A DNA stretch of 63,522 bases, counting the filler, from Hausera hauseri (taxonomy: Eukaryota): NCBI GenBank assembly GCA_046269625.1. It is 11 parts of 11 records of this genome, joined end to end, with 100 filler letters (N's around TTAATTAATTAA, not from the genome) between each part and the next. Parts side by side here need not be neighbours in the genome. Positions count along the whole stretch, not along the records: positions 1 to 9,257 come from JBJURY010415477.1; 10 more parts are not named here. One strand, written 5' to 3'. The first letter of the stretch is position 1. Every line of letters starts with the position of its first letter. The translations under genes were made by a program, and so were the position numbers. The notes under the pieces are model-generated. The model did not search any database, was not told where the DNA came from, and saw nothing but the letters and a program-made list of their open reading frames with translations. Shown here piece by piece: positions 1 to 42,605 of the stretch.

Positions 1-1415
1 ATGCCAATTTTAAAGGCATCCTGGCATTCTGCTCGGGATATTATTATTGGCTCAAAAGGTGTTGTAGGCTCAATTATAGCCGAATTTCCCGAATAATAGG
101 CGCAATTAAACAGAAAAAACGATCTTTTCACGTAACATTCTCTAATTTTTATCTTTATAAACTCTGACTCTTGATATACCCAATATGTAAGGCCACTGGT
201 AGTTGTTAGTTGTTCTGGATCTGCTTCCGGACATTTCTCTAAATCAACTAGAGAATACTTTTGTCCTTCGCTAGGTTTTGAACAATCGTACGCTACTATA
301 CCTACGGCTTTAGGCATCAATAATGACGTTATTAATAGAATTTGTATAATTTCCATTATTGACATACCGGTTATACCTGATCGAGACGTAGTTGGTTGCA
401 TCCCAACTGGTCTATCTCTTTCTCGTTCTTCTGTTCTGGTTACATTTGTCGTCAGACTATTCAGCCATCCACCTCTACATTGAGCCCAATTTCCCAGGGT
501 ATCTTTCAGAATCTTCACAACTGTCTTTATATTTCGTTCGATTTCTTCTAGATTCTGAGTCTGATGGTTAATTACTATTATCTTATATAGCAAATAAGAT
601 ATAGCCGTTTGGGCCTTTTCCCGTGTGATGCCTGTGGCAAGCATTTTTTCCAAAATGTCTAATTCGTGCAACTCGTTTATCCTTTCTTCCTCCAGATTCT
701 CATAAAATTGTCTGCTTATTCGCAGCATACTATTACGTAATGTGTTAAATACTTCATCCGGAATTACTGCCTGCATGTCAAATGAGGCAAATGACGTGTG
801 CATCCTAGCCAGTAACGTTCTTAATAATGGATCTATGTCTACTGATTCTGGGGTACCATCTGTTCCTGCTAGTAATAAACGTCTTACTATTTCTTCATTT
901 CTATCTTTTTTATTGCGAATGTCGCTTATTTTTGTTCCTCTTGGCCTGCCTCTTCTCTTGGCGTCCGTTTGGACCGTAACGTCTTGTGTATCGCCCATAG
1001 GGTTTTCTACCTCATGTTGTTCCATTTCTCTTACGATTTCTTCCACTGTTGCTTGCGCTCTAGCCTCCGGATTTATTCCCGTTATATTTATCGGATTATA
1101 ATTCTCACTTCTGCATCCGATTCTCAATATTCTATCATATCCATATAGTGTCCTTCCATAGTAACTTAATCCATAAGGACTGGCTTGGTAAAATGGTTCC
1201 AGCTCCTCTATCCTTTCTCGTAAGGTTTGTATGTCATCGATTTCGTTCATCCGGATGACCCTCGTGTCTTGATTGCCTTCTTTTATCGTTATTCTGATAG
1301 CTTCGTTTCTTCCTTTCTCTTCTTCCGCAGCTTTGGCTAGTACAGTCCTAGCTATCTCTTTCACAGGACTGATGTCTTGGGCTAATAATACCAATTGGGG
1401 TAAAATTTCATTCAT
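1..1415 (-). CDS. Retroelement-type polyprotein (partial, runs off the window edge): Ubl-like domain + AT-hook + internal signal peptide + N-terminus of chuvirus-like class III fusion glycoprotein
   Basis: Hand translation gives a stop-free frame of ~470 codons, absent from the ORF track because it has no stop. Contains IRITIK..DDIQTLRERI..LSYYGRTL (Ubl pattern, ~1298-1080), KRRGRPRG (~959-936), hydrophobic MSIMEIIQILLITSLLMPKAVG (from 365), then IVAYDCSKPSEGQKYSLVDLEKC..ECYVKRS..IIEPTTP..C. Homologous to 40670-40320. Confidence 0.85.
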   Translation of the reverse strand, partial: MNEILPQLVLLAQDISPVKEIARTVLAKAAEEEKGRNEAIRITIKEGNQDTRVIRMNEIDDIQTLRERIEELEPFYQASPYGLSYYGRTLYGYDRILRIGCRSENYNPINITGINPEARAQATVEEIVREMEQHEVENPMGDTQDVTVQTDAKRRGRPRGTKISDIRNKKDRNEEIVRRLLLAGTDGTPESVDIDPLLRTLLARMHTSFASFDMQAVIPDEVFNTLRNSMLRISRQFYENLEEERINELHELDILEKMLATGITREKAQTAISYLLYKIIVINHQTQNLEEIERNIKTVVKILKDTLGNWAQCRGGWLNSLTTNVTRTEERERDRPVGMQPTTSRSGITGMSIMEIIQILLITSLLMPKAVGIVAYDCSKPSEGQKYSLVDLEKCPEADPEQLTTTSGLTYWVYQESEFIKIKIRECYVKRSFFLFNCAYYSGNSAIIEPTTPFEPIIISRAECQDAFKIG

Positions 1416-1443
1416 TCTTTCCGCCGTCACTTTACTAGTAATT

Positions 1444-2160
1444 ATCGATGTGCACTCATGTGCACTATCGATCGGCACATGTGCAAAATCGATTAATCGA
1501 TTACCCCGGGGGGGGAGAGGGACCGAACCGCCATTTCTACACTACTTATACAGATACACAAATGTGAAAAGTGCAAAAGTGCCATGGCAACGGTGCCCAA
1601 AGGCACCTCCACCTTGAGCATTTGCCGATCGGTAGTGCACCGCGTGCAATACCGACCTCTACATGTAACATGATAATTTTATCGATATTTCATTTTATAC
1701 CGGAAAGGCCTATGGGAAGTCTGCCTCACCTGGCATTGATTCGAAGTTTAATTGATGGATTTAAAATCTAATTGCACATTCACTTAGTGCATCGCGTTTG
1801 CACTCGATTGTAACCAGTGCCATGTGCTAACCATCAATATTGGAATTACCAGAAAACCGATATTATTGATTTTTGAACACTTGTACATGTGCAGTGCACC
1901 TGAAAAATGCACCGATCGATGTGCACTAATGTGCACATCGACTAGCACTTTGGCCCAATCGATTCGTGCAACTGTGTAATGAGCAACTATCGATTTGTGA
2001 AATGTGCAAAAATGTGATTAGCAGCGATGCCTAACGGCACCGTTGACTGGCACATTACAGATCGATAGTGCTTCAGGTGCACTACCGACTAGCACATGTG
2101 CAAAATTGATTTATTGATTACATCCCGAGGGTGGGGCAGAGTTCCAATTTTTCCCGTACT
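1444..2160. repeat. GTGCAC/ATCGAT palindrome-rich dispersed repeat (two ends, at 1546 and 2160); probable Polinton-type terminal repeat
   Basis: Aligns by eye with 9358-9535, 31151-32000 and 42181-42605. All copies end in ...TACT, which reads AGTA on the minus strand. Confidence 0.7.
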
Positions 2161-9357: not shown

Positions 9358-9535
9358 CGATTAGCACTTTGTCCCGATCGATTCGATCAATAGTGCACTG
9401 TGCAGCGATCGATAAGTGAAAAGTGCAAAAGTACCTTTAGCAACAGTGCCTAGTGGCACCGTTGATAGGGACTTTTTGGATCGATTTATCGATCCCCCCT
9501 CGGAGGTGGGACCGAACCGCCATTTTCACATTACT
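9358..9535. repeat. Palindrome-rich repeat end (probable Polinton-type terminus)
   Basis: Matches 42384-42605 closely, including the caac.gtgcc-tagt-ggcaccgttg hairpin and ggaccgaaccgccattt..tact end. Confidence 0.75.
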
Positions 9536-9835
9536 TATGTAAATTCAGCATTTTAATTATTCTTTTCTGTATTAAAATTTTTTCTTTCTATACAACGATA
9601 TGGTATTATATATTGACATGTATTGCTACAAATACAATGTTTTTATTTCATGTTTTTGGAACTACATTGCGGCACTACGTTTGCGAAGTCAATAAAATAT
9701 AGTTATGAGATCTTCTTGTCAGTAAAGCGTCTTTATAAAGTCTCTTAATTTTGTGAAAATCACATTCAACCTTTAGGGTAATGTTTCTTTTACCATGTTA
9801 AATTAAAATTGAACATTACGAGGAAATTACCTAGC

Positions 9836-12148: not shown

Positions 12149-13699
12149 CTAGCTATTTACAATGGTGGTCAGATAGTTGAACACAAGTACAGTTGAACAC
12201 AGCAACAATTGAACACAAGTAAGTTGAACACAGCAACATTTGAACACAAGTACAGTTGAACACAGCAACAATTGAACACAAGTACAGTTAGCTATTTTTC
12301 TCAGATATTTCATATTATCCTGTTCATTGGCATATCCTAGAACAACAGACATTACCTTTCTCATCAATATCTCATACTTCTTCCTTTTTGGTTCTGGATT
12401 GCCAATCTCTGCATCAACCAATGTTTTGATGTGAATAGCCATGTCTTTCTTCAATCCCTCAAATAAATCCCACACACCAGGATGACTACAGTTGAACAGA
12501 GCCCTGAGAGAATTGTGGAATCCTTCACAGCAGTTTGTAGTTCTTTCTTGTCCAGCAGCAGCTGCTGCATGATGATTCCAGATTCTGACAGGAAACATCG
12601 GCTCTCTACCTGCATAGCCAGCAATGTAAGTGGAGCCAAAGTATGTGATCAGCTCATTGTATCTCTCATCATCTGGAAACTCAGCTGCCAGCTGATCAAA
12701 CAGTTCTCTCACATCATCCTGGGGGACAAATGCTAAAGCTGCCAGTGACTTCATCTTCAGTCTCATGGGGATCTGCTCTTGATCATCATAGACAGTTTTC
12801 AACCCCACATTTCCAATTTTTCTTAGAAGGCTTTGGCTAAGGTGGAAGTAGCAGCCTTTGATTTCTGCACCTGGAAAAGCTATTTGGGCAGCAGACATGC
12901 AAGCTTTTTCAAAATCCAGGAGAATTGTCTGTGGAGACAAGTTGGGCAGCAAGTGATTCAGGATTCTAAACATTCTGTTGTAAGTGTCTTGGGTTTTGTT
13001 CTGCAGGAGAAAGTAGATGCATGGAGGATAGGAGTTGCCATTCTTTGCATGCCAAGTGTAAAGCTGGTAGAACATCTTAGGGACTTTGTCAAAGGTTCCA
13101 TCCCCAAAGATTGTGTCTTTCTGAAGTTCCACCAAAAGATCTGGTTCACCAATTGCCAGAATTCTGTTAGGATCATCCTCTCCAGAATCATGAAGAATCA
13201 TGTGCATGTACTCTTCTGGAATTTTAAATTGTGCTGTGTCTGGATTTGGAGTATGATTTCCTCCTGCCTTCTTAACTCTGTTCAATTTTCTAGTGATTGA
13301 TGACTTTTTTGGCATATGGGCCTGAATTTCTTTGGATACCTGCATTTCATTAAGAACAGTTCCCATCACATTTCTTGGATTGGCACCCACAGACTTGATT
13401 TTGTCCACCATTTTCTGCACAACAGCATTGGCATTGATTACCTGTGGAAATGAATCATGGGAGTGGCCAGTGGGTTCAACAACAATGGCAGGAGTTTCAT
13501 CATCAGTAGTTTTCATTCGGGAATGGCATTTCTCTAATCTGTATTGCCTGCACCTCCATTGGACAATGCCATTGGTTGTTCTTTGTTGAATGTACTCATG
13601 GCCTTTGTAACCCACAACTTTCCCACCCCTTTTAGTAAAGTAAAATTGTGTCCAATGGTTGCTGTGTTCAACTGTACTTGTGTTCAACTGTCTGACCAC
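12149..13699 (-). CDS. FLYWCH-MULE transposase (open frame, start codon uncertain)
   Basis: FLYWCH zinc finger (TKRGG..Y..WRC..C..HSH), DGTF, LLDFE, GCYFH, RTTNCCEGFH catalytic motifs. No internal stop. Confidence 0.92.
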   Translation of the reverse strand: MVRQLNTSTVEHSNHWTQFYFTKRGGKVVGYKGHEYIQQRTTNGIVQWRCRQYRLEKCHSRMKTTDDETPAIVVEPTGHSHDSFPQVINANAVVQKMVDKIKSVGANPRNVMGTVLNEMQVSKEIQAHMPKKSSITRKLNRVKKAGGNHTPNPDTAQFKIPEEYMHMILHDSGEDDPNRILAIGEPDLLVELQKDTIFGDGTFDKVPKMFYQLYTWHAKNGNSYPPCIYFLLQNKTQDTYNRMFRILNHLLPNLSPQTILLDFEKACMSAAQIAFPGAEIKGCYFHLSQSLLRKIGNVGLKTVYDDQEQIPMRLKMKSLAALAFVPQDDVRELFDQLAAEFPDDERYNELITYFGSTYIAGYAGREPMFPVRIWNHHAAAAAGQERTTNCCEGFHNSLRALFNCSHPGVWDLFEGLKKDMAIHIKTLVDAEIGNPEPKRKKYEILMRKVMSVVLGYANEQDNMKYLRKIANCTCVQLLLCSTVLVFKCCCVQLTCVQLLLCSTVLVFNYLTTIVNS

Positions 13700-13700
13700 C
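12164..13700 (-). mobile_element. Compact MULE (Mutator-like) DNA transposon with repeat-containing TIRs
   Basis: ~55-bp TIRs ggtggtcaga.agttgaacacaagtacagttgaacacagcaac at 12164 and inverted ending at 13700. No clean 9-bp TSD visible. Confidence 0.9.
12174..12290. repeat. Subterminal tandem array of ~15-17-bp TTGAACAC units
   Basis: Seven TTGAACAC cores alternating -AAGTAC and -AGCAAC on the left end, versus three on the right end. Confidence 0.9.
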
Positions 13701-15579
13701 TTTCATTGACATTTGGCGCCGCTGCACAGTCGTCAATTAACGATTACGTTGAATAATTGATTCCCTTTGTTGACAGTGACGCCGAAGGCGAAATTTATGT
13801 GTATTTATATACGTAAAAAAATTGAAAACTGTTTGTTGTATTGGTGATAACAGAAAAATAAAGTGAAGTTTGTTATTATTTTTTTATATTTAAAATAAAA
13901 TTATTGAATAAGGCTTATTCTGACAATCGGGGCTACTTTATCTAACACTGTCTGAAATTATTTTAAATAACGGTCTTGTCCTGGTAGCATTACCGACTAA
14001 CATTTGCTACAGAAGCAAAAATCCTGCATTAAAGGTTCTTATCTGGCAGCATTGCCAACAAACCATTCTGACTAAAAGTAACGTGCACTAAAGCTTCTGC
14101 CTGATAGACAATACTTACTAAGCCGCAAATTCTAACGCCATCTTTCGTACTGAATTGTGAGAATAGCCTCTATTGTCGAATTACTGTTGCAAGATAAATA
14201 AGCAAAATACTATTTCACAGGTGTTATCCTAGTGATACTACCTGAAGAAGGGTTGTCAAGTCGATTCTTGGTGACTCACCAACATCTTTGACCCAAATTA
14301 ATTTAACGAACAATAAAGATAATCCATAAACTTCGTGTTTCGAATTCGTATCGCCTGCCAAATACCAATTGTACAAAGATAAGTCAGTGCTTGGTATGAA
14401 AATCGTTGATTGACATTCGTATATCATTAAGCTTGAAGCCGAACTCACTGTAAGGCTAACACTGGTCCGACCTCCAACAGTTAAAATAAATCCAACGGAT
14501 CATAAATTTAACAAAAGTACAAAAGATTTTGCTGATAAACGAAGTCTTTTTCGGCTTTTAATTTTGTTTTAAATAGAAAGACTTTAAGAAAAGTTCTGCT
14601 TTTCACGAAGAAGTATAAAAAGCACAAAAACAAATTTGCCAGGGAACATTTAAATTTAGCGTCTCTCGTTTTATATTTGAAATTATATCCATCGATCGGC
14701 CTTAAATAACGGACTTTAATAATAAACAGTAACATTCATAAAACAATGTGACAAATGTTATAAGTAATCGGTTTTTGTGAGATATTTGATTTTAACCTTA
14801 TTTTAAATAAAAATACTTAATAGTTCGCTGTGTCAAATAATTGCAACTTCAAACAATACTCCAACCCGAAATATTTCCCTTTAAAAGCAATGTCGCCATA
14901 TAGTTTTATACAATTCTAAAAATTGTCAGAAAATTATTTTCATTTTCTGTTAAAATTTCATGGTGTTTTACTTGTCGAATAACGTAATGAAAGTAATTTA
15001 ATTATTAAAATTAAGCTAAATCAAATTTTATCAGCATTTTGAAACACAGAAAGTGTTTCCAGGAATTTTCTGCTTGTAAAGAAGGCTGGCCTGAGAAGTT
15101 CGAGATATGCTTCCTCACATGGTTCTATCTTTACAAAATACATCCACTGTAGCCTGGTGTTAGCTATAAAAACATATTTACTCCTCTTACACACCATAAC
15201 CCACATATAATAAGTCCGTATCACCCTCATATGTCAGTATCACCCTCATATATTATTGCCTATTACCCTTGTGTGTGTGCACAGGACTGCCTGGATAAGA
15301 AAATCCATTGTTATCCCACCTCATTCATCCACTGCCTCCTTTTTGCTCCATCTTCATTCCAGCTGTTTATCACCACTTTCATTCCATCATCACTTCAAAC
15401 CTTCCAGGAGGCCTGCTCTGACTTCTCTGTGAATACGCTGGCTCCAGGTCAGTCAGCACCCAGGTGTGTTGGTGGGTTTNNNNNNNNNNNNNNNNNNNNN
15501 NNNNNNNNNNNNNNNNNNNNNNNTTAATTAATTAANNNNNNNNNNNNNNNNNNNNNNNNNNNNNNNNNNNNNNNNNNNN

Positions 15580-18500
15580 CCAATTGCCATTCTAAATTTT
15601 GTATTGTTAGGTAATATAGTTTCTTCCCCAATGTCCTTTAAATATCCTGGTTCCATGGGTGTTTCGACGGGTTTGGAATCATTTAAATTAAATCTGTCAA
15701 TAATTTCTTGTATTTTCACATTTTGATTTAATGCGAAGTGTCCTTGTTCAGTTTTCCTTATATTGATTCCAAGGTAATATCTGACGGGTCCTAGATCCTT
15801 AATCTCATATTCTTTACTTAGACTCTCAATCGTTTCTTTAATTTGAGATTCGCTACCGGCAATTAAGATGTCGTCTACATAAACAACAACATATATGGAA
15901 TTTTTGTCCTTTTTACTAAAGTATAAACATGGATCAGCTGTGCTTTGTGTGAAATTTAAATTTTTTAATGTTTGGCTAATCCTTGTCTGCCATGCTCTGG
16001 CGGCCTGTTTGAGTCCATATATGGCCTTCTGCAATTTGCAAACTTTGTTTTCCTTTCCTGGAACAACGTATCCCTCAGGTTGTGCCATGTATACATCTTC
16101 GTTCAGATTTCCATGTAGAAAGGCAGTCTTCACGTCAATGTGATTGACGTTCAAATTTTTATGGGCTGCGGTGGCAAGCAACGCCCTAATAGTTGTATGG
16201 GATACCACCGATGCGTAAGTTTCATCATAATCTTCACCGAATTTTTGTGAATAACCCTGAGCCACTAGTCGAGCCTTAAATTTTTCTATTTTGCCTTCGC
16301 TGTTATATTTGGATTTAAAAGTCCATTTACTACCTATGATTCTTTTTCCTTGCGGGAGATCTACGAGTGACCATGTGTTATTTTCCTTGAGAGAATTGAT
16401 CTCTTCTTGTGTGGCCTGAAGCCATTTTGATTTCTCATTTGGGTTCTGTAATTTTTGTATATCTGACCAGCTACGCGGTTCTTGTACGTGATCATTAACA
16501 TAATATATTAATCTATCTGGAGGAACTCCCTTATTTGATCTTAATGATCTTCTCGGCTCTTCATCAGCAGCACTTGTAGGTGTTGAATTTTCGCTGGTGT
16601 ATGATTCAGACAAGTCTATTTCAATTTCAGAATTTTGATGATTATTTGACTCTTCAAGAAATTTAACAGTTCTAGATATGATAATATTTTTATTCCCTGT
16701 GTAAATTCTATAGCCTTTAGAGTTAATGTCGTATCCAACGAAGATACCTGCTTGTCCCCTGTCATCTAGTTTAGATCTTTTAGTTTTGTCAACATAAGTG
16801 TAAACCTTGCATCCGAACAATTTTATATTCGATAAATTAGGCCTGTATTTTTCCCAAAGTTCAAATGGAGTTTTCTGGTTAGCCTTGGTAGGTAGTCGGT
16901 TCTGCAAGTAAGTGGCAGTGTGAATTGCCTCTCCCCAGAACTTGTGTTCAAGATTTGCTTCATTGAGGAGACATCGCGTCATTTCCATTAATGATCGGTT
17001 CTTACGTTCTGCTACACCGTTCTGAGGTGCGCTGTATGGAACGCTTAATTGATGGACAATTCCAAGAGATTTTAAATAGTCTACCATATCAGTATTAATG
17101 TATTCTCGACCATTATCAGTTCTGATAGCTTGCGGTACTTTACCGAATTTATTTTTTATCATAAGTACGTATTCCTTTAGTTTACTGAAGACTTCCGATT
17201 TATTTGATAAGAGAAATATAGTAGTATATCTACTAAAATCATCGATAAATGTCAAAAGATAGGTTTTCCCTCCAATTGTTGGGGTTTTTAGCGGTCCGCA
17301 TAAATCACTATGTATGAGTTCTAAGACTTTTGTAGCTCTGTGTTGAGCTTTATGAGGGTAAGGTTTACTTGTTAACTTGGATTTAGCGCATATCTCGCAA
17401 TCGAGATTATGTGTGCATTTGTTTATCTTTATACCTATGGCTAAATCTTCCCTAACCGTTTGCTTGATGGCTTCGTAGTCTCGATGACCTAATCTTTTAT
17501 GCCATATATCAATACAGTTTTCATTACTGCAGTGGTGGGCTAAATTCACGCAACCTGGAGGTTTATCGTTTTGGAAAGTCACCTGATATAAACCCTCTTT
17601 AATCTGTGCAGTTAAACAGATTTTTCCTGCGTATGTGAAATGGCAGTATTCCTTTTCAAAAGTCACTGTACACCCATTTTGAGTAGCTTTCTTCACCGAC
17701 AATAAATTTGTTTTAATATCTGGTACGTATAATACATCCTTTAGTGTAATTCTATTTGTTTCGTTATTTGGGGTCCTTTTTGTTAGTATTATTTCACCTG
17801 ATCCATAGGAAGTAAGCGTTTGTCCATTGGCAATTATAACTTCTGATTTATTTGTATTGTACACTTCGGAGAATAGATTTTTATCATTAGAAATGTGGGA
17901 TGAACTTCCACTGTCTATTATCCATACATTATTGCCTGGTCTTTCTGTGATAAATGCAAAATTATTCATTTCTTCGTTTAATTTTTCAACCTCCTTGGGG
18001 TTTACTTCCAGTGATTCATTACAAGGTGTGGTCCCTGTATTCATTTCCAAACATAGCGATGATTTATTTTCTGTTAATTTTGTTTTCATTTGTTGATTTG
18101 TACTTTTAAGGTGCCAGCAATTTTGTTTAGTATGATTTTTTCGTTTGCAATATGTGCAAAATTTGTCCGCCTTAGGATTAAAGTAATTTCGTTTGGTATT
18201 ATTGCCATGATAATTATTGTGATAGTTGTGATTTTGGAAATGTCTATTTTTGTTTATTTGAAATGCCTTCGTGGCGTCTTGTTGAGTGGCATTCTCAATT
18301 CGCCTAGAATATTCATCTATCAGTTTGCTTTTCAAAAAACTTGGATTGAGTTCCGACTCGGGTCTGGCCTCAAGAGCTGTAATAAGTGTATCATAAGATT
18401 TCGGCATAGAGCATAAGAGAAGAGCGGAGATGTGTGAGTCACTTATCACTTCCCCGATGGCGTTCAATTTATCTATAATTTCTAAAATTTTTGTTATGTG

Positions 18501-18854
18501 AGTGTTCATATTTCCGCCTTCCTCAAGTTTTGTATTATACAATTTTCTCAATAGGAATAGTTTACTGCTCAGATTTGTTCTTTCGTGGACATTTTTTAAC
18601 GTATCAAAGGTTTCCTTAGCCGTCGTTAAGTGCTTGACGTGCATTATCTGCGAATTGTCTATGAATAAGTTAATCAAGGCCCTTGCTTTATTATCTTTCT
18701 TTTTCCATTCACTAGTTTCAGGTGTGGGAGGACTTTCAGTAACTAAGTCATATAAATCCTCTCTAATGAGAACCATCTGAATTTTAAATTTCCACGTACT
18801 ATAATTATGTTCATTTAATTTTTCAATTATTTGGCTTTCTTTAATTGAACACAT
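15580..18854 (-). CDS. Copia Gag-Pol part 1 (Gag, CCHC knuckle, protease, integrase, RT)
   Basis: NYSTWKFKI, CTYCKRKNHTKQNC, WIIDSGSSSH, WHKRLGH, HSDLCGP, RTDNGREY, QNGVAERKNR, HIDVKTAFLHG, YVDDILI. PR-IN-RT order is copia-type. Confidence 0.97.
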
Positions 18855-19094
18855 GTTTACGCACTTTATTCACTTCGTATCAAAATACAATATCTTTTCG
18901 AAAGTGAAAGTCAATAAATTCAATACTTTTGAGATCGCTTATAATATAGGATACCATAAAATAATAATGAAAATTGAAGCAAACATTATGCACAAATATA
19001 CTTATATAGTTGTATAAAACAGTTCAAGACAGCATACTGAGCTTCTATAATCATTCTTATTTGTTGCGCATTTATGCGTTATTCATTTAATGCT

Positions 19095-19108
19095 TCAGTC
19101 TCATAATC
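19095..19108 (-). promoter_or_regulatory. Primer-binding site complementary to the anticodon arm of elongator tRNA-Met
   Basis: GATTATGAGACTGA directly follows the LTR CA. The plus strand reads TCAGT-CTCATAA-TC, the animal elongator tRNA-Met anticodon stem-loop. Confidence 0.8.
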
Positions 19109-19714
19109 TGTTAGAAGTAAATAAAGATATCCTAGGTAACACAGTTTCAAGGTAAGTATAGATAAGGAACTTCACTTACCTGATTTGCTTCTAATGCGAC
19201 GAATATTGGTATCCTTAATAATCCGCTACTTTTCCTTTTTTACATAGGAACACAGAATGTACGTAGACGAATAGCGACGTTCAGTAATGGCAAATTAAAC
19301 ATAGACGGAAGTAATAAAGAAATCCTTTCAATTGGGATGAACAATTCTATTTAATATAACATAAAATTACATTCTTGATTAAGTATATTTAAATTCAAAG
19401 TAATCAATTTGTACAATTATTTAATACTAGAATAGTAGGAGAGTGCCGAACGGCCAACCTCCATGATTAAGACTTTGCTACCAACAGAGTGAAGAAAATG
19501 CGTACGTAAGAGAAATAACTTGCGGTTAAAATTCTCAAAGAACACTCCCAGCTTTAGGAATGAGCTGAGCAGCGTATTTATTCATGTACGCGTAGAAAGC
19601 TAATAGAGTTAAAATTGATAAGTCTTTTGCAGTCTGAATAAATATTTCTTACACACAATTATATAGAAGTTCGAAATGAGTTCAATTCAGATTCAGAGAT
19701 CATCACTTCCAACA
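19109..19714 (-). repeat. Copia LTR (606 bp)
   Basis: Begins TGTTGGAAGT right after the polypurine tract AAGGAGGGA. Ends ACTTCTAACA, giving a 10-bp imperfect terminal inverted repeat. Confidence 0.88.
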
Positions 19715-20461
19715 TCCCTCCTTGATCTCTGAAGGTGATGGTGTTGACGATAACTGCATGCTGGCTCGATGTCCAACGAAACAAGGTCTAGGTAAAGGCT
19801 TCGTGAGTACGTCGGCAATCATCTCGCTGCTGGGACAGTAATCGATATCAATGATCCCCTTCTCTTTCAGGTCTCTGATACAATGGAACTTTATGTCAAC
19901 GTGTTTGGTTCTAGATGTGTGCTTTGGTGATTCAATCATTTTAATTGAAGACTGATTATCCTCAAACAGTTTTATTGGCATATTTTGAGGCATGTCGAGA
20001 TCTTCTAATAGTCTTATTAACCACAAAATTTCTTGCGCTGCATTGGCAGCTGCCACATATTCAGCTTCGGCTGACGATAGTGCTACACAGTTCTGTTTTT
20101 TTGAAATCCAGTTAATGGGACTCTTTCCCAAAAGAAATAAGTTCCCAGAGGTAGATTTCCTATCATTTTTGTCACCTGCCCAGTCTGCATCACTATAGCA
20201 TGTTAATTTAGCATTTGATTCAGGATCTATGAGTAATTCATGATCAATTGTACTTTTCAAATATTTTATTACTCTTTTTGCTTGTTCCCAGTCTTTGCTT
20301 CTGGGCTTTTCATTTCGCCTGCTTAATATGTTTACCGCGGCAAGTATATCAGGACGAGTGATTGTGGCAACATATAATAATGCACCAATTGCCATTCTAA
20401 ATTTTGTATTGTTAGGTAATATAGTTTCTTCCCCAATGTCCTTTAAATATCCTGGTTCCAT
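19703..20461 (-). CDS. Copia Gag-Pol part 2 (RT end + RNase H); joined ORF ~1318 aa
   Basis: TRPDI, YSDADWAGD..RKSTSG, SSAEAEY, EDNQS, KHVDIKFH, ADVLTK. Confidence 0.97.
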   Translation of the reverse strand: MEPGYLKDIGEETILPNNTKFRMAIGALLYVATITRPDILAAVNILSRRNEKPRSKDWEQAKRVIKYLKSTIDHELLIDPESNAKLTCYSDADWAGDKNDRKSTSGNLFLLGKSPINWISKKQNCVALSSAEAEYVAAANAAQEILWLIRLLEDLDMPQNMPIKLFEDNQSSIKMIESPKHTSRTKHVDIKFHCIRDLKEKGIIDIDYCPSSEMIADVLTKPLPRPCFVGHRASMQLSSTPSPSEIKEGCWK

Positions 20462-26300: not shown

Positions 26301-27388
26301 ACCGGGCAGAGATAACGTATTTTCCTATATTTTGCAATTAAGAATGTTGGTCTTCAACACCGAATGGATATTAACAACACATCATCCAAGCGACAACAAA
26401 TAATTTTCCATCTTGAGTTTTGTTTTTTGATCGGTTATAATAACAAAAATGGAACTTCTTCAATTCCATAATTATACTGTCAATCAATGCAAACTTTAAC
26501 ATTTCAATTGGATTTTCAATTTCACGCTTGTCTGAATCCAATCGAATTTTGTAATTCTCGACTGATTTTAACATGAAATATAACGATAGTAACTTGGTCA
26601 AAATGAATCGAATTGCGACATTTGAACAGCCGTGGTGGGGTGTCGTGAACAAGAGCCGGATACCAAATTTTGTAATATTTTTTATACGTGTTTTAATTGC
26701 ACGATAACTCAGAAATACAAGTTGTAGCTTCTTTAAAACGTTTCAAATAAACTTTCGATGCTGGAAAAGTGTTTTGTTTTTACGGATTTCTCCAAAAGGA
26801 TTGAAATAAATAATACGTTACGGGTTGTAATGAATTGTACAAGTCCTATGAAACAAAATGACAATGATACGTGGTTGGTGCATCGGAATGTAACAGATGG
26901 TATTTCCGTGCACCAGAAAAACAGTTATCGGTTTTGATTATATAACCCTGATTCTTTATGTAAAAGGTGCTATCGAGAATTCAGATATACAAACTGCAAT
27001 CTACAATTGGTGTCAGGATCAAAAATCCTACGATTTGATTTGTCGGACTCCGGAATATGAATTTTCACCCACGATTTTTGCGGAAAATTGCAAACCTACA
27101 ATTTGGAACTATGTAGTGAGTTCGGTTTTTGTTTGTTCGATACCCTGCGGCTGTTATTTGTGTCGCAATTTACTTGTTGGGTTAAAATCGAGAGTTATAA
27201 AAAATCTAATCCTAAATTGTAAAAGAAACATTACCTTCGGATTGAGACGGACAACATTCACTGTAATTTATATGACATATTACAAATCGTTTTATTGCAA
27301 AACTTTATCAAATCATCCGGATTACGGTAAACATAATCGAAATAATAATTATATAGAAACTGAAGCCACGTTTTACCATTTAGTATGT

Positions 27389-29645
27389 ATGGATGCCAAA
27401 CTGATATCTGGAAAAGATGTTGCAAAAACGATTCGGGATGATTTGACAAAACGAATTTCACAAATTCAGTCATGTCAATCCGGCTTTCATCCATGCTTAG
27501 CGATTGTCCAGGTTGGTAATCGTGTAGTTTCCAATGTGTACATTCGACAAAAATTAACTAACGCGGATGAGTGTGGTATTAAAGCACGACACATCAAGCT
27601 ACATAACACTGCCACTGAAGATGAGATTTTGAAAGTTCTCGATAAACGGAACAGTGACAATAGTGTGCATGGAATTGTAGTGCAGCTACCGCTCGACTGT
27701 ACGAGTGTTGTTAATTCTAATTTCTACAAATTCCATTGCAGTGGAAAAAGATGTCAATGGGTTGAGTAAAAATTGCCGGTAAATTGGCACATGGGGAACT
27801 GATTTCATGTGTTGTCCCATGTACACCGAGAGGTTGTTTAGAGCTTATATCGCCTACCGGTTTAAGTAACCCAGGAAAACATGTTGTTTTAGGCCGATGT
27901 AAAATAGTTGGTCGACCAATGGCTTACCTGTTGTTATGGAGCCATGCAACAGTTACAGTTTGTCATTCGAGAACTAAAATATTACTAATAAAGTTAGTAG
28001 AGCTGATATTCCCCTGGTTGCCATTAACAAAGCACAGTTTGCGAAAGGTGACTGGATTAAGTCCGGATCGGTTATTATTGATTGCGGTATATTCACCAGT
28101 CCTGACTCAGATAACAAATTGGGGAAAAAACTTGTTGGTGATATTGAATTTGAAGTGGCTAAAACTCGTGCTGTTTAGATACCCCCAGTTTCCGGTGAAG
28201 TTGGGGCTATCACAGTGGCAATGCTACTAAAGAGTACTGTTGATAGTGGGGAGAGATTAATTGAAAGGAACCAGAACACAAATTTTACTAGTTTACCAAA
28301 CCCCTTAAAATTACAATCAAATGTGCCTTCGGATATCGGCATATCTCGGTCACAAAAACCGTAACCGATTTCCCAGATATCAAAGGAAATTGGCATTTTA
28401 CCCCACGAACTTGATTTATATGACGAAAGTAAAGCGAAAGTCAGTTAGGATATTTTATCACGACTGACGAATTGCAAGAATGGGAAATATGTACTTGTTA
28501 CTGGAATCAATCCAACACTATTCGGTGAGGGCAAAAGTATAACAGCAATAGGTCTGAGTCAAGCTTTATTCGAGTGTTTAAAAAAGAATGTTTTTGCATA
28601 CTGTAGACAACCGTCTCAAGATCCAACTTTCGGAATTAAAGGAGGTGCCGCAGGCGGCGGTTATTATCAAATTATTCCAATGTACGAATTTAATTTACAT
28701 TTAACGGGTGATATTCATGCAGTCACTGCTGCCAATAACTTACTGGTGGCTGCTATCGATGCTCGAATGTTTCACAAAAACACTGAAAGTGACACTGCTT
28801 TGTTCAGTCGTTTAGTCCCATCTGATCATACCGGTCATCGTAAATTGTGTGCAGTACAATTGGAAAGAATTCAAAAGTTGGGTATATCAAATACATACAT
28901 AATGACATGGGACGAAACGACAATTCGTCGATTTGCTCGACTTGATATTAATCCCAGTACGATTCAAGTCGAACGAGTTATTGATAATAACGATAGATTT
29001 TTACGAAAAATTACGATTGGAAAGTCTGCAACAGAAAAGGGTCATGAAAGAGATTGCCAGTCTGATCAAAGCGTTGCTAGTAAATTGATGGTCATATTAT
29101 CTCTGTCCACTAGTTTACAAGACATGCGACAACGTATTGGGCGATTTGTAGTCGGATTTAGTAAATCGGGGATCCAATTACAACAAGTAATTTGGGTGTT
29201 TGCGGTGCAATTACAGTTCTGATGAAAGAAACTATTAAACCCAACCTGATGAAATCCTCGGAAGGTGGTCCGGTAGTCGTTTATATCGGACCATTTGCTA
29301 ACATAGCACACGGAAATTCATTAAACATAGCTGATACGATTGCTCTTAAACTGGTAGGCGAGAATGGATATGTTTTGACTGAAGCCGGATTCGGTGCCGA
29401 TATTGGAGCAGCAAAGTTTCTTAATATTAAATACAGATCGTCTGGTCTCGTACCAAATGTTGCCGTTTTGATTGTATCGCTTCCAGCTCTTAAACTTCAT
29501 GGTGAAAATATCAAGAAACAAGGAGTCCTCATCGTCGTTGCTTTAAACAATTTCAAATACGATCATACGGAAGAAATCGAAGCAGTTTGTCGAATAGCAA
29601 TAGAAAACTGAGCGCACGATGCTGTTTTAGCTTCTCATAGGGCTC
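27389..29645 (+). pseudogene. MTHFD1: Trifunctional C1-tetrahydrofolate synthase pseudogene (FolD + FTHFS domains)
   Basis: [109 protein letters not shown]. Multiple frameshifts and stops, 3' truncated, intronless. Confidence 0.93.
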
Positions 29646-31150: not shown

Positions 31151-32000
31151 AGAAAATTAATTATTCGAAAAGTTCGACTTGTATTCGAGTTTTTCGAATA
31201 TCGTATGTCATAATTGGATACAGCACATGTTAGTTTCTATGTGCGTACGCTTTTAGATTTTTTGATTTTCACTTGCTTGTGTGCTAAAATTAACTTCAAA
31301 TGTTTTATCGGGAAACCGTTATTATTGATTAAGGCACACTTGCATATGTGCCACGCATGTGCAAAGTGCCATATAGATGCATTAAGACATGGGGAATCGA
31401 CTGGCGCTCTCAGATTTCTCAAAAAATTTGTGGGTGTCAAGATATTTGATACTATTCGATGAAAGTCGATAAATCTGAGATGGAAGACCCGGGTTACAAT
31501 GTGGCAATTCCTATCTGTCCCCGCTTAAACATTTGTCAAATTTGGCTTCCTTAAGGCCTAAAAAACCTATGAGGGTTCTCGCTCAGTTGAACTTGGTACA
31601 CACTTCAAAAAATATTCGATCGATTTAAATTCTAAGTGCACAGGGTTGTAGCCAATCAAAAACTCGTTTGAACTGCGCTCTCCAAATGTGCTAATCATCA
31701 ATATTGGAATTATCGGAAATCCGATATTACTGATTTTTGCACACTTGCACTGTGAGCTGATCGACGTGCACTAATGTACACTATCGATTAGCACTATCCC
31801 GATCGATTCCGATCAATACTGTACCGTGCAGCGATCAATTGTGAAAGGTGAAAAAGTGCCCCTAGCAACGGCACCGTTGCCTAGCACATTACCGATCGGT
31901 AATGCTCCATGTGCACTATCGATTAGCACATGTGCACTAGTGATTTTGCACTGTGCGACCCCTTCCGGGGGTTGAGGGAGAACCCGCATTGTCCCCTACT
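31151..32000. repeat. Long copy of the palindrome-rich repeat (probable Polinton-type TIR), followed by (TATG)n
   Basis: 31620-31940 aligns with 1755-2100 and 42200-42550. Ends gtcccctact (AGTAGGGGAC on the minus strand). Confidence 0.7.
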
Positions 32001-35809: not shown

Positions 35810-36215
35810 TCAATGGACAACAATTTTTCCACTGATAAACACATTGGCACAAAGTGGGCGAAACGATGTAAGCCTCAGTGCAGGAAACAGTTCGGGTTCA
35901 TACGTACATTCAGCAGCGACCAATTGATAATTTGTACAGATTGATTGTTTGGTGGTAGTCTAACTGAGTCGTAACCGTTATTGATTGGATTTTGTCAATG
36001 ACAATTCCGAATGGTAGTAGTTTACTCTTACTGTTGTCAGCTGTGATTGGTTTGCGACAACCCATAATACGACACTTTCCCGATTGAAATGCGATGCATG
36101 TAAAATCCGGTGGACACTTGAGGACATACTGCCTCGGCTTCCATTGATTAAAAGGTAGTGCGTTAATGTCACACCACTCGGCAACATGTCCGCGATAGTT
36201 CATATTAGCTAACAT
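35810..36215 (-). pseudogene. Divergent TATA-binding-protein-like gene (one frameshift)
   Basis: Two TBP-like repeats: ANMNYRG..CIAFQSGKCRIMG and QSITVT..INLYKL/..TYEPELFPALRL..ANVFISGKIVV. Confidence 0.75.
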
Positions 36216-36310
36216 TATGGAAACAGTGTTTATACTATAGCTATTTATATGCGTGTAACGCGATTATAAACAAATCATGTGGTGAGGAAAGTTTGTTTTA
36301 CTATTATTAT

Positions 36311-36970
36311 ATGAAGCTGCAGAATGATGCCATGTTTCAGATTGTAGGCCCCAGTGGAAGTGGCAAAACACACTTTGTGTGTAAACTATTGCAGAACTAC
36401 CGTGACATGTTCCATAAATTGCGGTACAAACACATGTACTGGTATCAGAATGTTGGTGATGATGGTGAGTTTGGTTTGACACATCGGAAATTTTGTAATC
36501 TGAAATCCATAACGGTAATTGATGGGTTTGATGAGAACTGGTCAGAGATGTTCCGCAACGGTGAGGTTATTGTAACTGACGATTTATTTCAGGAAGCCTC
36601 GAAATAATCGGACTTTAAAAACCTGTTCACGAAGATTGCACGGCACCATGGTGTGACGGTTATTTTCCTTACGCAAAACATGTTCCATCAGGGTGGACAG
36701 CGTCGAACAAGAAATCTAAATGTACACTATTTAATGTTGTTCAAAAATCCCCGTGATCAAACTATCACTGATTATGTTGTACGACATGCAGTTCCTCACA
36801 ATCGAGCCTACTTAATAGATGCATATCATGATGCTACTACCGAACCACACGGATACTTGTTCATCGACTTTACACAACAGTATCCCGATGACATGCGTGT
36901 ACGAACAGACGTTTTCAATCAGAAAGGTGGTGTATGTGCCTATAAAAAATTCGAAAATCGACGACATGAT
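36311..36970 (+). pseudogene. A32-like genome-packaging ATPase of Polinton type (single in-frame TAA at 36605)
   Basis: Walker A IVGPSGSGKT, Walker B VIVTDDL, FTKIARH..VIFLTQN, NVHYLMLFKNPRD, PHGYLFIDF, RVRTDVF. Confidence 0.9.
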
Positions 36971-37205
36971 TATTATAAAAAAAACAAAATGAAGAATTTC
37001 CGAAAAACAAGTGTTAAACGTAAACCTACTACCAAGCGGGTGTCCGGCGGTAAGAAACGTGTATCAAAACGAACAACCGCTACAGTCAAGCGATTAATCA
37101 ATTGTGTGCTTCATCGGACAACAACACCAGCACCTAGACGCAAATTGCCGTCACAGTTGCAACCGTTATAAACAAATACGTCTCATCAACATCAATACGT
37201 CAAAA

Positions 37206-37421: not shown

Positions 37422-38190
37422 CCTATATCTTCCTCGTTTTGGGCGATAATCGATTTATATTTGCATAATAATTCGTAAAATTGACAATATGCTTCCGGTG
37501 AAAATTTTATCTCAACATGAGGTGGAAACTCGGCATATTTATAAGGTTTTTCTTCGATTGTTATTGCCCATACTTTATAAGTATGGCCCAGTGTAGTATT
37601 TGCATACAACGTTACAGGAGTTGGTGCGTTATTTACTATTCTGATTGGTACTCGACCTGTCACTACTCTAGTCAAAATGTTACTGAGTATGACATTTGGG
37701 TTAACGCTTTCTTCTGGTTCAAAATATACTGGTTGGTCGTTCTCTTCGCGGATTTGAGCATAAATTAACATTTCGGTTCCGGGCGGAATATTTTCATCGA
37801 CGAGAATCCATACTTCTGGTTTTCTTTCTTTCCTTGTTTTAATCCCTTTCACTGGTTCGAGTTCAAGTAGTTTTCCGGTATGTAAATTAATCGCGATGTT
37901 GGGTAATTGCTTGAATATATCTCAACCTAACACTACATCATCAGTTAATAGATCCATTATGGCAAACTCGTGTTGAAGAATTTGGCCCATTAGTTGCACT
38001 AAGGGACTCCATTTAAATTTTGGTTTGGATTCTTGCCCGAAGGCTCCTATGCTGCTCGGATCTGACGACGATACTGGCTGCAGTTGTTTTCGTAATGTCG
38101 GCGGTATTGATTCTAACTTAATAAACGATTTTCTGATCCTGTGTCGATTGAGGCATAGACATTCCAATCTTCAATGGTAACTTTTGTGGA
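37422..38190 (-). pseudogene. Retropepsin aspartic protease and gypsy-type PR-RT linker
   Basis: VTIEDWNVYASIDTGS..DVVLG*D. Then IPPGTE..VPIRIVN..VTLYANTTLG and ELLCKYKSIIAQNEEDI(G), the motif that precedes gypsy RT. The contig ends here. Confidence 0.85.
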
Positions 38191-38879
38191 GAGCCTTCCT
38201 TCCATAACTGTTCCATAACAACTCGACACGTCCTTTGGTCGCTTAATTGAAGAAATCTTATGTCCGTTTATCATTATTTCTGGTGATGAAATGATATTCT
38301 CAGTCAACTGTTTCAGTTCGTCGTTAGGGTATAAGTCATTAATCGCTAAGTTATTTGCATTGTTTCTAATTAATGGTTCTTGTACTATTGGATATTGGGG
38401 TGTTCTTATTCCTTGTGTTCCCCAAACTGTTGATCTTGATTCTATATTACGAGCTATTCTTGGTGAGTACAATATTTTATGGTCATCCTCCGCTCGTTGA
38501 TTAGTGATCTGCATTTTCTTCAATACTCCATATTGTTTTGTTCCTTCATAAGGGTCTTCATAGCTAAAGGGTTTCCGACTAATTCCGATTTGTATGATAC
38601 CATAGACGTTCTATCGCAGTCTTCATATATTGGAGCTGTTGGTCAAATGATGGGCAAGGGTTCCTTAATTACGGAATACATCTTGTATCTATTTTGTCTG
38701 AGGATTGCTTCTCCCTTAGGCTCATCATCATCGGAGTTGTCTCTTCGTGTTATTGATTTCTTAGCTTTGCGTTTCAATAGAAATGTAGGTCTTGCTCGTC
38801 GTTTATAATTATGGTAGCCGACATGACGTTCAACGTCATTTTTCCATCGATTTTCTTCGTATGCTTTAAGCATTTTGCC

Positions 38880-40670
38880 GAACGGTGTGATAATTGCGGT
38901 TAAAATCTTTCAAGAAAATCCTGTTAGCGTGAATATTTTGTATCAATTTATAACCGCTTGGATTACCGCTGTTACTAGTTATACCAAGAAATAGATTGCT
39001 AAAAATCCAAATTCGGCTTGTCCAAAGATTAAAAATCTCCCCCATATTTTATAGAGTATTTCTGTGGTTACTTATTGGTAATGGTTTGCACCAAGTAAGG
39101 ATTCCCATTTAGCCTGATATCGAGTATCGCCAACTACTAATGCCATAGCTCCATTTAATTCGTGTGTTCTTTGTCATGAAACAGCAAGGAATTGTCGAAA
39201 AGCTTTGATTTCTTTAGGCCTGTAAATACCTTTTTGAGGTGTATCCTGAAAATTGCCATCGGTAATTCCTTTTGCTAAATTAGTTCCAGTTAGTTTTTTA
39301 GGAATGATAGTGACACCTCCATTGGGTAAGCTAACCCAATCCGTTTCGCTACGTCTGAACATTGATTTATCCAAACTTGCCTTACAATCCTTTAGGATGG
39401 TGGGTTGTGTTGCGGTATCTAGCAATACCCTGGTGAGGGGCATGGCTAAGCGTGGAGTGTTTCGATAGATCACATCGTTTTTCTTCAACGTTAAGTGGTA
39501 CGTCTCTTTTCTCGCACTCATATGTTAGTATAACTTCGCCAGTGACTCGGCCAAAGATTCCTTCTCTCATGGGAATAATCGGTGAGGCTAACTCAGGGTT
39601 TGCATAAATGAGAGCTAATTTTGTCCTCATAATCTCCGTATCCAATTTGCAATCATTAGTTATCATTTTATGGTATAACTCGGCTATTCCGACGTCCTTT
39701 ATAATAGAAGTAATCGTCTCGGTTTTTCATGTAATCTTTGATTCGAATGTCTTGCGTTTCTAAATTGTATGTTTTCGCGTTTATCTCCGTTTCTGCGACG
39801 AAGAACGCTTCATAGTTAGTAGTGAACATTACTACTTCACAACGTAAAATCATCTCCTTTTTTATGAATTTCAACCAATGTTGATCATAGATTAATATCG
39901 TAGGTGTATGATGCTCTGATACGTCTTCATGTGCTCTCAAACTGATGTCGGATTTGTCTACGTATCTTTTCCGGTAGTTTCATTAAATTTCAGTTCCTTA
40001 ATCTTAATAAAATTACAGTCTTTTCCAGCGGGCGGTTCCCATACGACGACAGAACTTTTGAAAGCACAGGTTCCGTCCTGCATATGACATTTTTGGTTCT
40101 CGGTATGTAGCTTAGTGACGCTATGGAACATCACTTTTTGGACTCGCATTTCCGATTCGTAAAAGTCGACTACTACTAAGTTCGCTTTCAATCCTTTTCC
40201 GGTGTCGTATACTGCTCCATTACATTGCCAATTATGCATATCTAACCTTCCGACTACTATTTTATGTACTCTAGTTATTTTCCCGGGCTGCATTTCTAGT
40301 TCCATAATTTCCCAATTCAGTCTTCAAGTCTCTCGGGCCTGCATGCAGTGTTGTCTTTCCAGATTCATTGGAATTGGGGGGGTGGTTGGTTTGATTATCG
40401 AGGAATGTCCGTGCATTAGTCCAAAGTGAAAAATAATACGAGATCGTCTCAGCATACACTCCATGCTGTCAAAAGATATCAACTCTTATTGCTGATATAG
40501 GAAATAACTCTTCTCCTTTGTTTCCATTTTATGTGGTCTGGCATCTTTACATGTTTCTAAGTCAATTAGTGAGTATTTTTGTCCAAGTTTAAATCTATCG
40601 CAATCTTAGACGGTGAAGGAGCCCACCTGTATTATCAGCATCATTATGGTGAACAAACTAACTAACCAAT
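38880..40670 (-). pseudogene. Chuvirus-like (Monjiviricetes/class III) fusion glycoprotein
   Basis: *DC..GQKYSLIDLETC, C...DGTC....VVW, KLALIYANP..GIFGRVTGEVI..C, PLTRVL, GIY..EI, WGRFLIFG..AIYFLV..IN, GFS*KILTA. Confidence 0.85.
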
Positions 40671-42180
40671 TAGATTCATTCTTCCGCTTGTTATTATACG
40701 TTGTAGTCAAATTCCGTATGATGTCTCAGAGTCCATTATTACTACTGTTCTTTTTGTCTTCTTCCTTGTCAAACAATTTTGGCCAATTTACTTCACACGG
40801 AAACTTTTTAGCTGCTTTTCGTGCCAAGCTTGTAGCTCAATTTAGTTCTTTCTCTCGATTTGAATTTGCTTTGATCGCCAAGTACAATTATTCTTTTCTT
40901 AGCTCTTCTGTCGTATTCTCCACCATATTTTTCTCAACTACTGCGTCGTCAGTTAGGCTACATTTTGACAGATTGAAACGCGAACTTCTCATTGTCCTCC
41001 CTGCGTTAAATATTGCCTTTTCTTTCTCATCTAATGTATCTCCCCGAACACCTGAATAATTTGCGATACGTATTAAATTTTCCATTAACTCGATTAACTC
41101 CTAACTGTCTGTACTAAAGCTAGGAATCGACATTTGTCTCAGTTCTCTAATTAATTCTTTGTTATAGTCAATCTCTTCTCGGGCTTTCCTAGGTCTTCCG
41201 ACCGGGCGTTTTGGCCTTGGGACATTGTTTGTTATTCCACTCAGTGGCACTAGGTTCTTGTCGTATTGTTCTTTGTCTTCATCCGTCTGTAAATTCTCAA
41301 AGTACATTGCAGCATCTCGTACTCCCATAATTTGTCCTACGCATTGTTCTGTTTTAGCCTTCTGCGTGGCTTCTTCTTTTGTCTGTTCATTGGCTATTAT
41401 TACTACTATCCGGTTCGTTTCGCCGGGGATAATGCCAACGTCTATTAACTGTTCTAATTCGTCGAGTATTCTTCCCTAAATTAAATGTGTAATTTAGCTC
41501 ATTTGTTCCGCCGTTATTTAATAACCATTCTCTTACGTCTTTCATGTAGGAGTACGTGGTTACCTCACATTCCTTTTTGTCCATCCACTCAGATGATATC
41601 ATTATTTTCATCGTTACCTCAGGTTTATCCTCCAAGATTTTCGCATACTTCTTTATTAAAAGTTTTGGCACCGCGCTGTAAATTGTGTTTTTACTAGATA
41701 ATTTCACTAGATATTTTATGTTGTCTTAGCTTATTTTCAGAAATATTTATTTTAATTTGTTCAATCAACTTCTTTTCAATTAGCGCTGAGTCCAATTGCA
41801 TCTCCACGTTGAATTTCCTGTTCTGTGGATACCTTTCTATTTCATTTAGGTATACCAGAGCTATAGGGTTTTCGGCCGTTATTTCAACTAAGTAAGAATC
41901 CCATTCCGGTTCATTCCTGATATCTGGGAGTCCATAGTCTAATAGAGCTGTGTTTGTCCTTTGCACATTTTCTGTAATTTCTTTCAATTTTAGTTGTATT
42001 TCTTTTATCTGTGTAGTCCGGAAACCTATGCCGTTTCCACAGGCATACTGAATCATTTTCAGTAGTTCGCCTAATTCATTNNNNNNNNNNNNNNNNNNNN
42101 NNNNNNNNNNNNNNNNNNNNNNNNTTAATTAATTAANNNNNNNNNNNNNNNNNNNNNNNNNNNNNNNNNNNNNNNNNNNN

Positions 42181-42605
42181 ATTATTCGAAAACCAATCAA
42201 TCGATTTAAATTCTAACTGCACATTCACATACAACATCAAGTGCACTACCGATTGCATCCGGTCGCGAACCCTAATGATCGATTTTTAAAATCTCGATAA
42301 TCCAATATTATTGATTTTTGCACAATTGCATATGCGCTGCACACTTGCACTTGCACCAATCGATGCATCTCGATGTGCTCTATCGATTAGCACTTTGTCC
42401 CGATCGATTCTATTAATAGTGCACTGCGCAGCGATCGATAAGTGAAAAGTGCAAAAGTGCCCTTAGCAACGGTGCCTAGCGGCACCGTTGCAGGCACTTT
42501 TTGGATCGATAGTGATCCGTGTGTGCTATCGATCGGCACAAGTGCAAAGTCGATTTATCGATTACCCCCTCCGGGGTGGGACCGAACCGCCATTTCTACA
42601 CTACT
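42181..42605. repeat. Palindrome-rich repeat end (probable Polinton-type terminus) abutting the gypsy tail
   Basis: Perfect 11-bp hairpin at 42466-42491. Ends ctacactact (AGTAGTGTAG on the minus strand). Confidence 0.75.

Follow-up and report, generated by a model that had tools for sequence, protein, structure and literature searches.

What does a ubiquitin-like sequence do ahead of an envelope protein in the genome of Hausera hauseri? The window, i.e., the whole stretch of DNA that was analysed (63,522 nucleotides, filler included; GCA_046269625.1), is composed of 11 unrelated contigs with N spacers and an all-frame stop linker between them. Its content is eukaryotic and repeat-rich, comprising a START-domain frame, a MULE transposase, a Copia polyprotein and gypsy fragments. 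Judged by the family match described below, the host would probably be a planarian. An earlier note on this DNA had described two copies of a ubiquitin-like domain (Ubl), each followed by an AT-hook and situated 5' of an envelope protein. This arrangement is present in both copies. On balance we think that a Burro-type GAG-ENV-POL retrotransposon carries, between its Gag and its Env, a cargo block of helical segment, Ubl, AT-hook and Bcl-2-like domain, in which the Ubl is a diverged, non-cleavable domain that probably serves as a cytosolic docking module for host-manipulating functions, not as a matrix or a budding signal. Taken separately, the identity and the topology in this explanation are highly probable.

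Sequences compared

Four elements were compared: copy 1 and copy 2, both located in the window, and the relatives P0002 and P0003/L001. Motifs were scanned in three protein records, P0001-P0003. Profile A1 was built from the window ORF and P0002, profile A2 from three sequences, the window ORF, P0002 and P0003. Homologues are few. One search returned a single match from 7848 candidates and another the query alone from 6014; two matches came from 1.84 billion representatives and the same two from 7986. Scans of viral_contigs and of a first metagenome provided no usable related loci. L002 was dropped as a relative, its match being confined to a low-complexity stretch. The viral_contigs scan had one confirmed match for which no locus was returned; the stretch may be host DNA that was assigned to a viral bin.

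The ubiquitin-like domain

The Ubl of copy 1 occupies 1077..1304 on the minus strand. The segment quoted in the earlier note corresponds exactly to residues 82-154 of the ORF (1298-1080) and reads as quoted. The Ubl of copy 2 (41395..41611, minus strand) carries one frameshift. Its quoted N-half begins at 41611; the C-half is read in a different frame, reaching to near 41395, and is followed by a GRP motif near 41200. None of the three proteins scanned has a C-terminal end of the type [LIV]..GG. The domain is of type II, without di-Gly, and was rightly described as non-cleavable.

Is the resemblance to ubiquitin genuine? Searching the PDB with profile A1 ranked the UBL of RAD23A first, with the whole domain covered (E 0.019). 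With profile A2, ubiquitin-fold proteins account for 59 of the best 60 of 206 rows at E<=5; a few of these we take to be ubiquitin-fold from general knowledge of the entries. All 59 map to one and the same segment, the Ubl. The best single domain among the rows listed is the UBL of ubiquilin-2 (E 7.9e-4); the smaller E-values of polyubiquitin entries are sums over repeats. The UBL of UHRF1 and ubiquitin itself are matched as well. A Ubl profile prepared without the window was run against 846 six-frame tiles. It retrieved copy 1 with an iE of 2.5e-9 and the C-half of copy 2 with an iE of 0.0016, the next unrelated tile following at 1.3. The N-half of copy 2 was not detected among these tiles and is assigned by eye. 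Nor did P0001-P0003 reveal a second Ubl further upstream, the next best match having an iE of 0.03 over 18 residues.

Structure prediction contributes less. In an AlphaFold model based on three sequences the Ubl region has the succession strand-strand-helix-strand-strand-strand, i.e., the order expected of a beta-grasp, at a pLDDT of 28-41. Fold searches with this model listed no ubiquitin-fold chain for the Ubl; their lists were taken up by matches of the Bcl-2 domain. In the model from a single sequence (mean pLDDT 39.9) the Ubl is unfolded, and the fold search gave generic helical bundles only. A BFVD search with the second model had no match at E<=0.001, and its weak rows include several viral Bcl-2 proteins. 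One BFVD row, annotated as 'ubiquitin-like domain-containing', was discounted (prob 0.12).

A fortuitous resemblance would agree with the low pLDDT of the Ubl and with the fact that the Ubl segment of the window alone has no Pfam ubiquitin match. Against this stand the accumulation of ubiquitin-fold entries on a single segment and the matches to PF00240 in both relatives, which are weak and below the gathering cut-off (P0002, E 0.031; P0003, E 0.0046), yet independent of each other. We consider chance extremely improbable. The beta-grasp assignment of the earlier note is supported by the profile searches; the predicted fold is of low confidence and has no counterpart in the fold searches. Judged from sequence the Ubl is well supported, while the beta-grasp is not confirmed by structure.

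Copy 1 and its family

In copy 1 a frame of 513 codons is open from 1541 to 3 on the minus strand and runs off the contig end. Homology to P0002 begins at 1460. This is the edge of a repeat of very high copy number that has palindromic modules inside (1457..2135, strand not assigned). The edge marks the 5' truncation of the ORF; gag is missing there and was merely lost at the repeat junction at about 1460. The Ubl appears N-terminal in copy 1 because the gag half has been cut off at this point. Relatives of the repeat are located at 9358-9538, 31686-31946 and 42181-42605. The members of this repeat family have a common start, AGTA..., on the minus strand and contain nested copies; the family could represent an LTR or a non-autonomous element.

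What remains of the element begins with the C-terminal part of a helical segment (1305..1460, minus strand), which aligns with P0002 from residue 407 and with P0003. The helical segment is conserved directly before the Ubl, at about residues 385-455 in P0002 and 560-630 in P0003; in copy 2 it is weak (41713-41630, minus strand; hhalign E 0.044). To us it is reminiscent of a MIF4G/HEAT hairpin or a CARD. As candidates, CARD and MIF4G-like domains were rejected, since neither is found by Pfam at E<=1 in P0002 or P0003. The Ubl is followed by an AT-hook-type basic motif, KRRGRPRG (936..959, minus strand), of which the RGRP core is invariant in all three rows of A2.

Next comes a Bcl-2-like helical domain (450..842, minus strand) which the earlier note had overlooked between AT-hook and Env and which links the cassette with the layout published for Burro. 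Its helical fold emerged in the fold searches with the three-sequence model. An RGGW motif of BH2 type is positioned at its end. The canonical BH1 motif NWGR is absent from all three proteins; a GI[T/S/E] motif is in its place. In this it differs from viral Bcl-2 mimics such as canarypox CNP058, KSHV Bcl-2, ASFV A179L and BHRF1: the domain is Bcl-2-like by fold, BH3 binding is only putative, and it is part of a Gag-Env polyprotein.

A hydrophobic segment follows at 294..350 (minus strand). In a Kyte-Doolittle plot of the ORF it constitutes the sole peak above 1.2 (2.05, residues 398-416), and it is predicted to be an internal signal sequence or membrane anchor with a presumptive cleavage site. 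The frame ends in the N-terminus of a class III Env ectodomain of the mononegavirus G/gB type (3..299, minus strand; PF24664, E 1.1e-11, above cut-off), which continues beyond the contig end. With the env of L001 it shares 44% identity over 117 aa.

In all four public runs contigs cover the Ubl bins. In run X1 the summed contig depth, which is not a copy number, amounts to 4,248-29,215 over 1-1400 compared to 8-231 over 2201-2900, and it reaches up to 386,753 over the repeat 1457..2135. The depth over 1-1400 fits a multi-copy family. Among the best-supported 40 of 737 variant places, which are not a random sample, 18 are inside the ORF. Fifteen of these are synonymous and 14 are in third positions (p 1.4e-4), which argues that the frame of the family is under purifying selection. 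Within the Ubl three of five variants from the same best-supported 40 of 737 are synonymous.

Could copy 1 instead be a co-opted, gag-less host gene, starting with the Met at 1415 and encoding a Ubl-Bcl-2-Env product? The 513 codons that stay open up to the contig end would be compatible with such a gene. However, the Met at 1415 is internal to the helical segment, opposite a Phe in P0002, and the homology extends beyond it to the repeat edge at 1460. Furthermore, the read sets contain the entire region in many diverged copies (15,829 contigs were placed in X1), which fits a recently truncated copy of a repeat. Co-option is therefore highly implausible, and we continue to view copy 1 as a retrotransposon fragment.

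The relatives and copy 2

P0002 (1130 aa) is 42% identical to the window ORF across 99% of the latter. It has, in this order, a dArc2-like capsid (E 0.0068), CCHC, Ubl, Bcl-2 and PF24664, and a single reading frame spans Gag into Env. The domain order of P0003/L001 is the same, with env in the same frame past one stop. Thus, in both relatives the Gag capsid comes first, with a CCHC zinc knuckle behind it; after these follow helical segment, Ubl, AT-hook and Bcl-2-like domain, and finally the signal segment and a class III Env. The stop in L001 is a lone in-frame TGA (L001:3058-3060) between the Gag-Ubl-Bcl-2 frame and the signal segment plus env, the frame being unchanged beyond it. It could be decay of that copy or programmed read-through, seen in a single contig.

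Copy 2 is a decayed, distantly related element; its gag end falls outside its contig. An AT-hook-type motif is present at 41185..41208 (minus strand; PF02178, E 0.046, below cut-off), and the A2 profile covers the region from the C-half of the Ubl to the AT-hook with an iE of 9.8e-6. A Bcl-2 profile fails to detect the Bcl-2 domain in copy 2, where it is visible by eye only. The decayed env (39385..40671, minus strand) is matched by P0002 in tblastn (E 9e-33) and, on one piece, by PF24664 (E 4e-4). It is located 5' of the protease, i.e., env precedes pol. The active-site motif DTG of the aspartic protease (38116..38200, minus strand) was read from the translation; the piece is short, and Pfam found no match in it at E<=1. 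Just after the protease, where Burro has a dUTPase-like domain, there is a beta-rich frame (37424-37921, minus strand) for which neither a Pfam match nor a relevant PDB match was found.

Across the relatives the Ubl is 36% identical to P0002 and 14% to P0003. The linker behind it has 35% and 16%, respectively, and the Bcl-2 part 51% and 22%. By these alignments the Ubl is retained yet fast-changing. Its conservation is no better than that of the linker, which gives no sign of a host interface under tight constraint.

Zinc knuckle, AT-hook and the position in Gag

The Ubl and, after it, a GRP motif with basic flanks are kept in four of four elements. By itself a GRP motif is weak evidence: the six frames of the window contain four matches, two of which are unrelated. 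The AT-hook call counts because the position of the motif is conserved in all four elements. The assignment as AT-hook-type is at the level of a motif, and DNA binding is predicted only.

The earlier note had suggested that the AT-hook takes the place of a zinc knuckle. This is contradicted by both full-length relatives, in which a CCHC knuckle co-occurs with the AT-hook (PF00098, E 2.5e-4 and 1.4e-5, above cut-off; one CCHC motif per relative). The knuckle is 5' of Ubl and AT-hook in both, so the AT-hook adds to the knuckle and does not replace it. The note had also considered a matrix-like module. Capsid and knuckle precede the Ubl by about 250-330 residues, hence the Ubl sits in the Gag tail and not N-terminal to the capsid, where a matrix would be sought.

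Relation to known elements

Burro or GYPSM1 elements are giant gypsy-like LTR retrotransposons of planarians (Arkhipova & Yushenova 2019; PMC6431247). As described there, CCHC knuckles are part of Gag, a Ubi2/SUMO-like motif precedes BCL-2, and env lies in frame between BCL2 and PR; env has matches to fusion proteins of mononegaviruses, and PR is followed by a dUTPase-like region. Interference with host apoptosis and ubiquitination has already been suggested for Burro there (PMC6431247). The elements reported here share with Burro the Gag with CCHC, the ubiquitin-like motif, the BCL2-like domain, the in-frame env between gag and pol and then a protease (PMC6431247). A class III env in frame after BCL2, which we use to delimit the Burro type, is found in copy 1 and P0002, in L001 in the same frame after one stop, and in copy 2 as an env 5' of DTG. 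The Burro-type or errantivirus assignment rests on domain order and cargo, as both contigs end before RT.

There are differences as well. The arrangement is compact, with about 250-330 aa from knuckle to Ubl and one CCHC compared to two or three in Burro (PMC6431247). Burro sensu stricto is giant (>30 kb) with MATH, BIR and ankyrin cargo, whereas none of these is matched in P0002 or P0003 (Pfam, E<=1). The Ubl matches PF00240 and the UBLs of ubiquilin and RAD23, not PF11976.

More recently GAG-ENV-POL elements of the HSV/gB type, termed 'ancient errantiviruses', were reported from Platyhelminthes, Bryozoa and Nematoda, e.g., Smed_errantivirus_1-6 (Chary & Hayashi 2026; PMC13524379). By their published description they too have a class III env before pol, flanked by a signal segment, and are multi-copy (PMC13524379). 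The terms ubiquitin, Bcl, AT-hook and apoptosis do not occur in the main text of that paper, where the cargo block is not annotated (PMC13524379). 'AT-hook' is likewise absent from the text of PMC6431247. A literature search, the original Burro description and its figures excepted, found no conserved AT-hook in such elements.

Among cellular proteins the Ubl resembles the type II UBLs of ubiquilins, RAD23, BAG6 and UHRF1, which are integral, lack a di-Gly end and provide the best sequence matches among the rows listed. Unlike these, it is of very low identity, polar at the Ile44 position in three of four elements, and set in a retroelement polyprotein.

Gag-Ubl-BCL2-Env-PR in one frame has been described before, in planarian Burro elements (PMC6431247), which makes our gain incremental. 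What is new is a minimal cargo of Ubl, AT-hook and Bcl-2-like domain kept across four elements at a Ubl identity down to 14%. This singles out the three modules as the core that is conserved within the cargo. As small single domains they may be used to probe the putative interference with host apoptosis and ubiquitination.

A proposed role

Domain order, frame and motifs are observations. From these we infer the steps of a mechanism, with hydropathy as the sole test applied to membrane topology. The hydrophobic segment would insert the polyprotein into the ER, and signal peptidase would free Env into the lumen. The segment left behind would fix the Gag tail to the cytosolic face, similar to the tail anchor of cellular Bcl-2 proteins. 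The Bcl-2-like domain may damp apoptosis in the particle-making cell. The Ubl may couple the membrane-bound tail to the host ubiquitin machinery via a surface other than the Ile44 patch, e.g., for turnover of bound partners or of the tail itself. The AT-hook could supplement the knuckle, by binding to AT-rich nucleic acid or to chromatin or by nuclear import. The specific role assigned to the Ubl, docking via a non-Ile44 surface which couples the Bcl-2-like tail to the host ubiquitin machinery, is tentative, and we rate it somewhat short of an even chance.

Why a different surface? ESCRT (UIM/UEV-type) and proteasome receptors bind the hydrophobic Ile44 patch. At the aligned position, which we take as equivalent to Ile44 in the numbering of ubiquitin, copy 1 has Ser, P0002 His and copy 2 Thr (by eye); it is hydrophobic only in P0003. 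PT/SAP, PPxY and YPxL motifs are absent from the three proteins scanned. Because the position is polar in three of four elements and no late-domain motif is present, the recruitment of ESCRT or proteasome factors that had been proposed earlier is unsupported. One may still argue that the Ubl mimics ubiquitinated Gag and directly recruits ESCRT (UIM/UEV-type receptors) or proteasome receptors for budding. Its place is the tail of Gag, a frequent location of late domains in retroviruses, no PT/SAP, PPxY or YPxL exists in the three proteins to do the job, and the UBLs of ubiquilins and RAD23, its best matches among the rows listed, bind the proteasome. The Ser, His and Thr in three of the four elements run counter to such binding, and we regard direct recruitment as very unlikely.

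The main rival of docking is more modest. The Ubl may be a structural spacer or folding aid, like a solubility tag, between helical segment and Bcl-2-like domain, kept for its fold and without a specific host partner. In line with this, the positions invariant across A2 are core and glycine only, the Ubl is no more identical than the linker, and the Ile44 equivalent varies. Yet the Ubl is kept in four of four elements and, according to the published account, in Burro next to ubiquitination and apoptosis domains (PMC6431247), and a rapidly changing surface fits a host arms race equally well. A spacer seems unlikely to us, and we retain docking as the preferred role.

Carrying docking further, one may imagine an 'inverted matrix'. 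Gag would be tethered to the membrane C-terminally by the Env signal segment via the Ubl-AT-hook-Bcl-2 tail. The Ubl would turn the Bcl-2-like domain into a degrader of bound pro-apoptotic proteins, i.e., a BH3 trap and a degron in one chain, and a leaky in-frame stop in some lineages (L001) would set the ratio of soluble to anchored Gag. This extension is speculative and quite unlikely in its entirety.

Other features of the window

A broken P-loop ATPase at 36209-37168 (plus strand) resembles the poxvirus A32 and Polinton packaging ATPases (PF04665, E 0.002, below cut-off). At 26894-29608 (plus strand) there are frames without introns, interrupted by frameshifts, which we take to resemble C1-tetrahydrofolate synthase; perhaps they are a processed pseudogene. 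The Copia element at 15582-20461 (minus strand) is almost intact. The first 77 nt of its contig are repeated exactly at the end and the two Copia frames seem mutually continuous, which suggests a circularly permuted assembly of the repeat. Lastly, a FLYWCH plus MULE transposase frame of 517 aa at 12152-13702 (minus strand) is intact and ends in a 16-nt tandem array.
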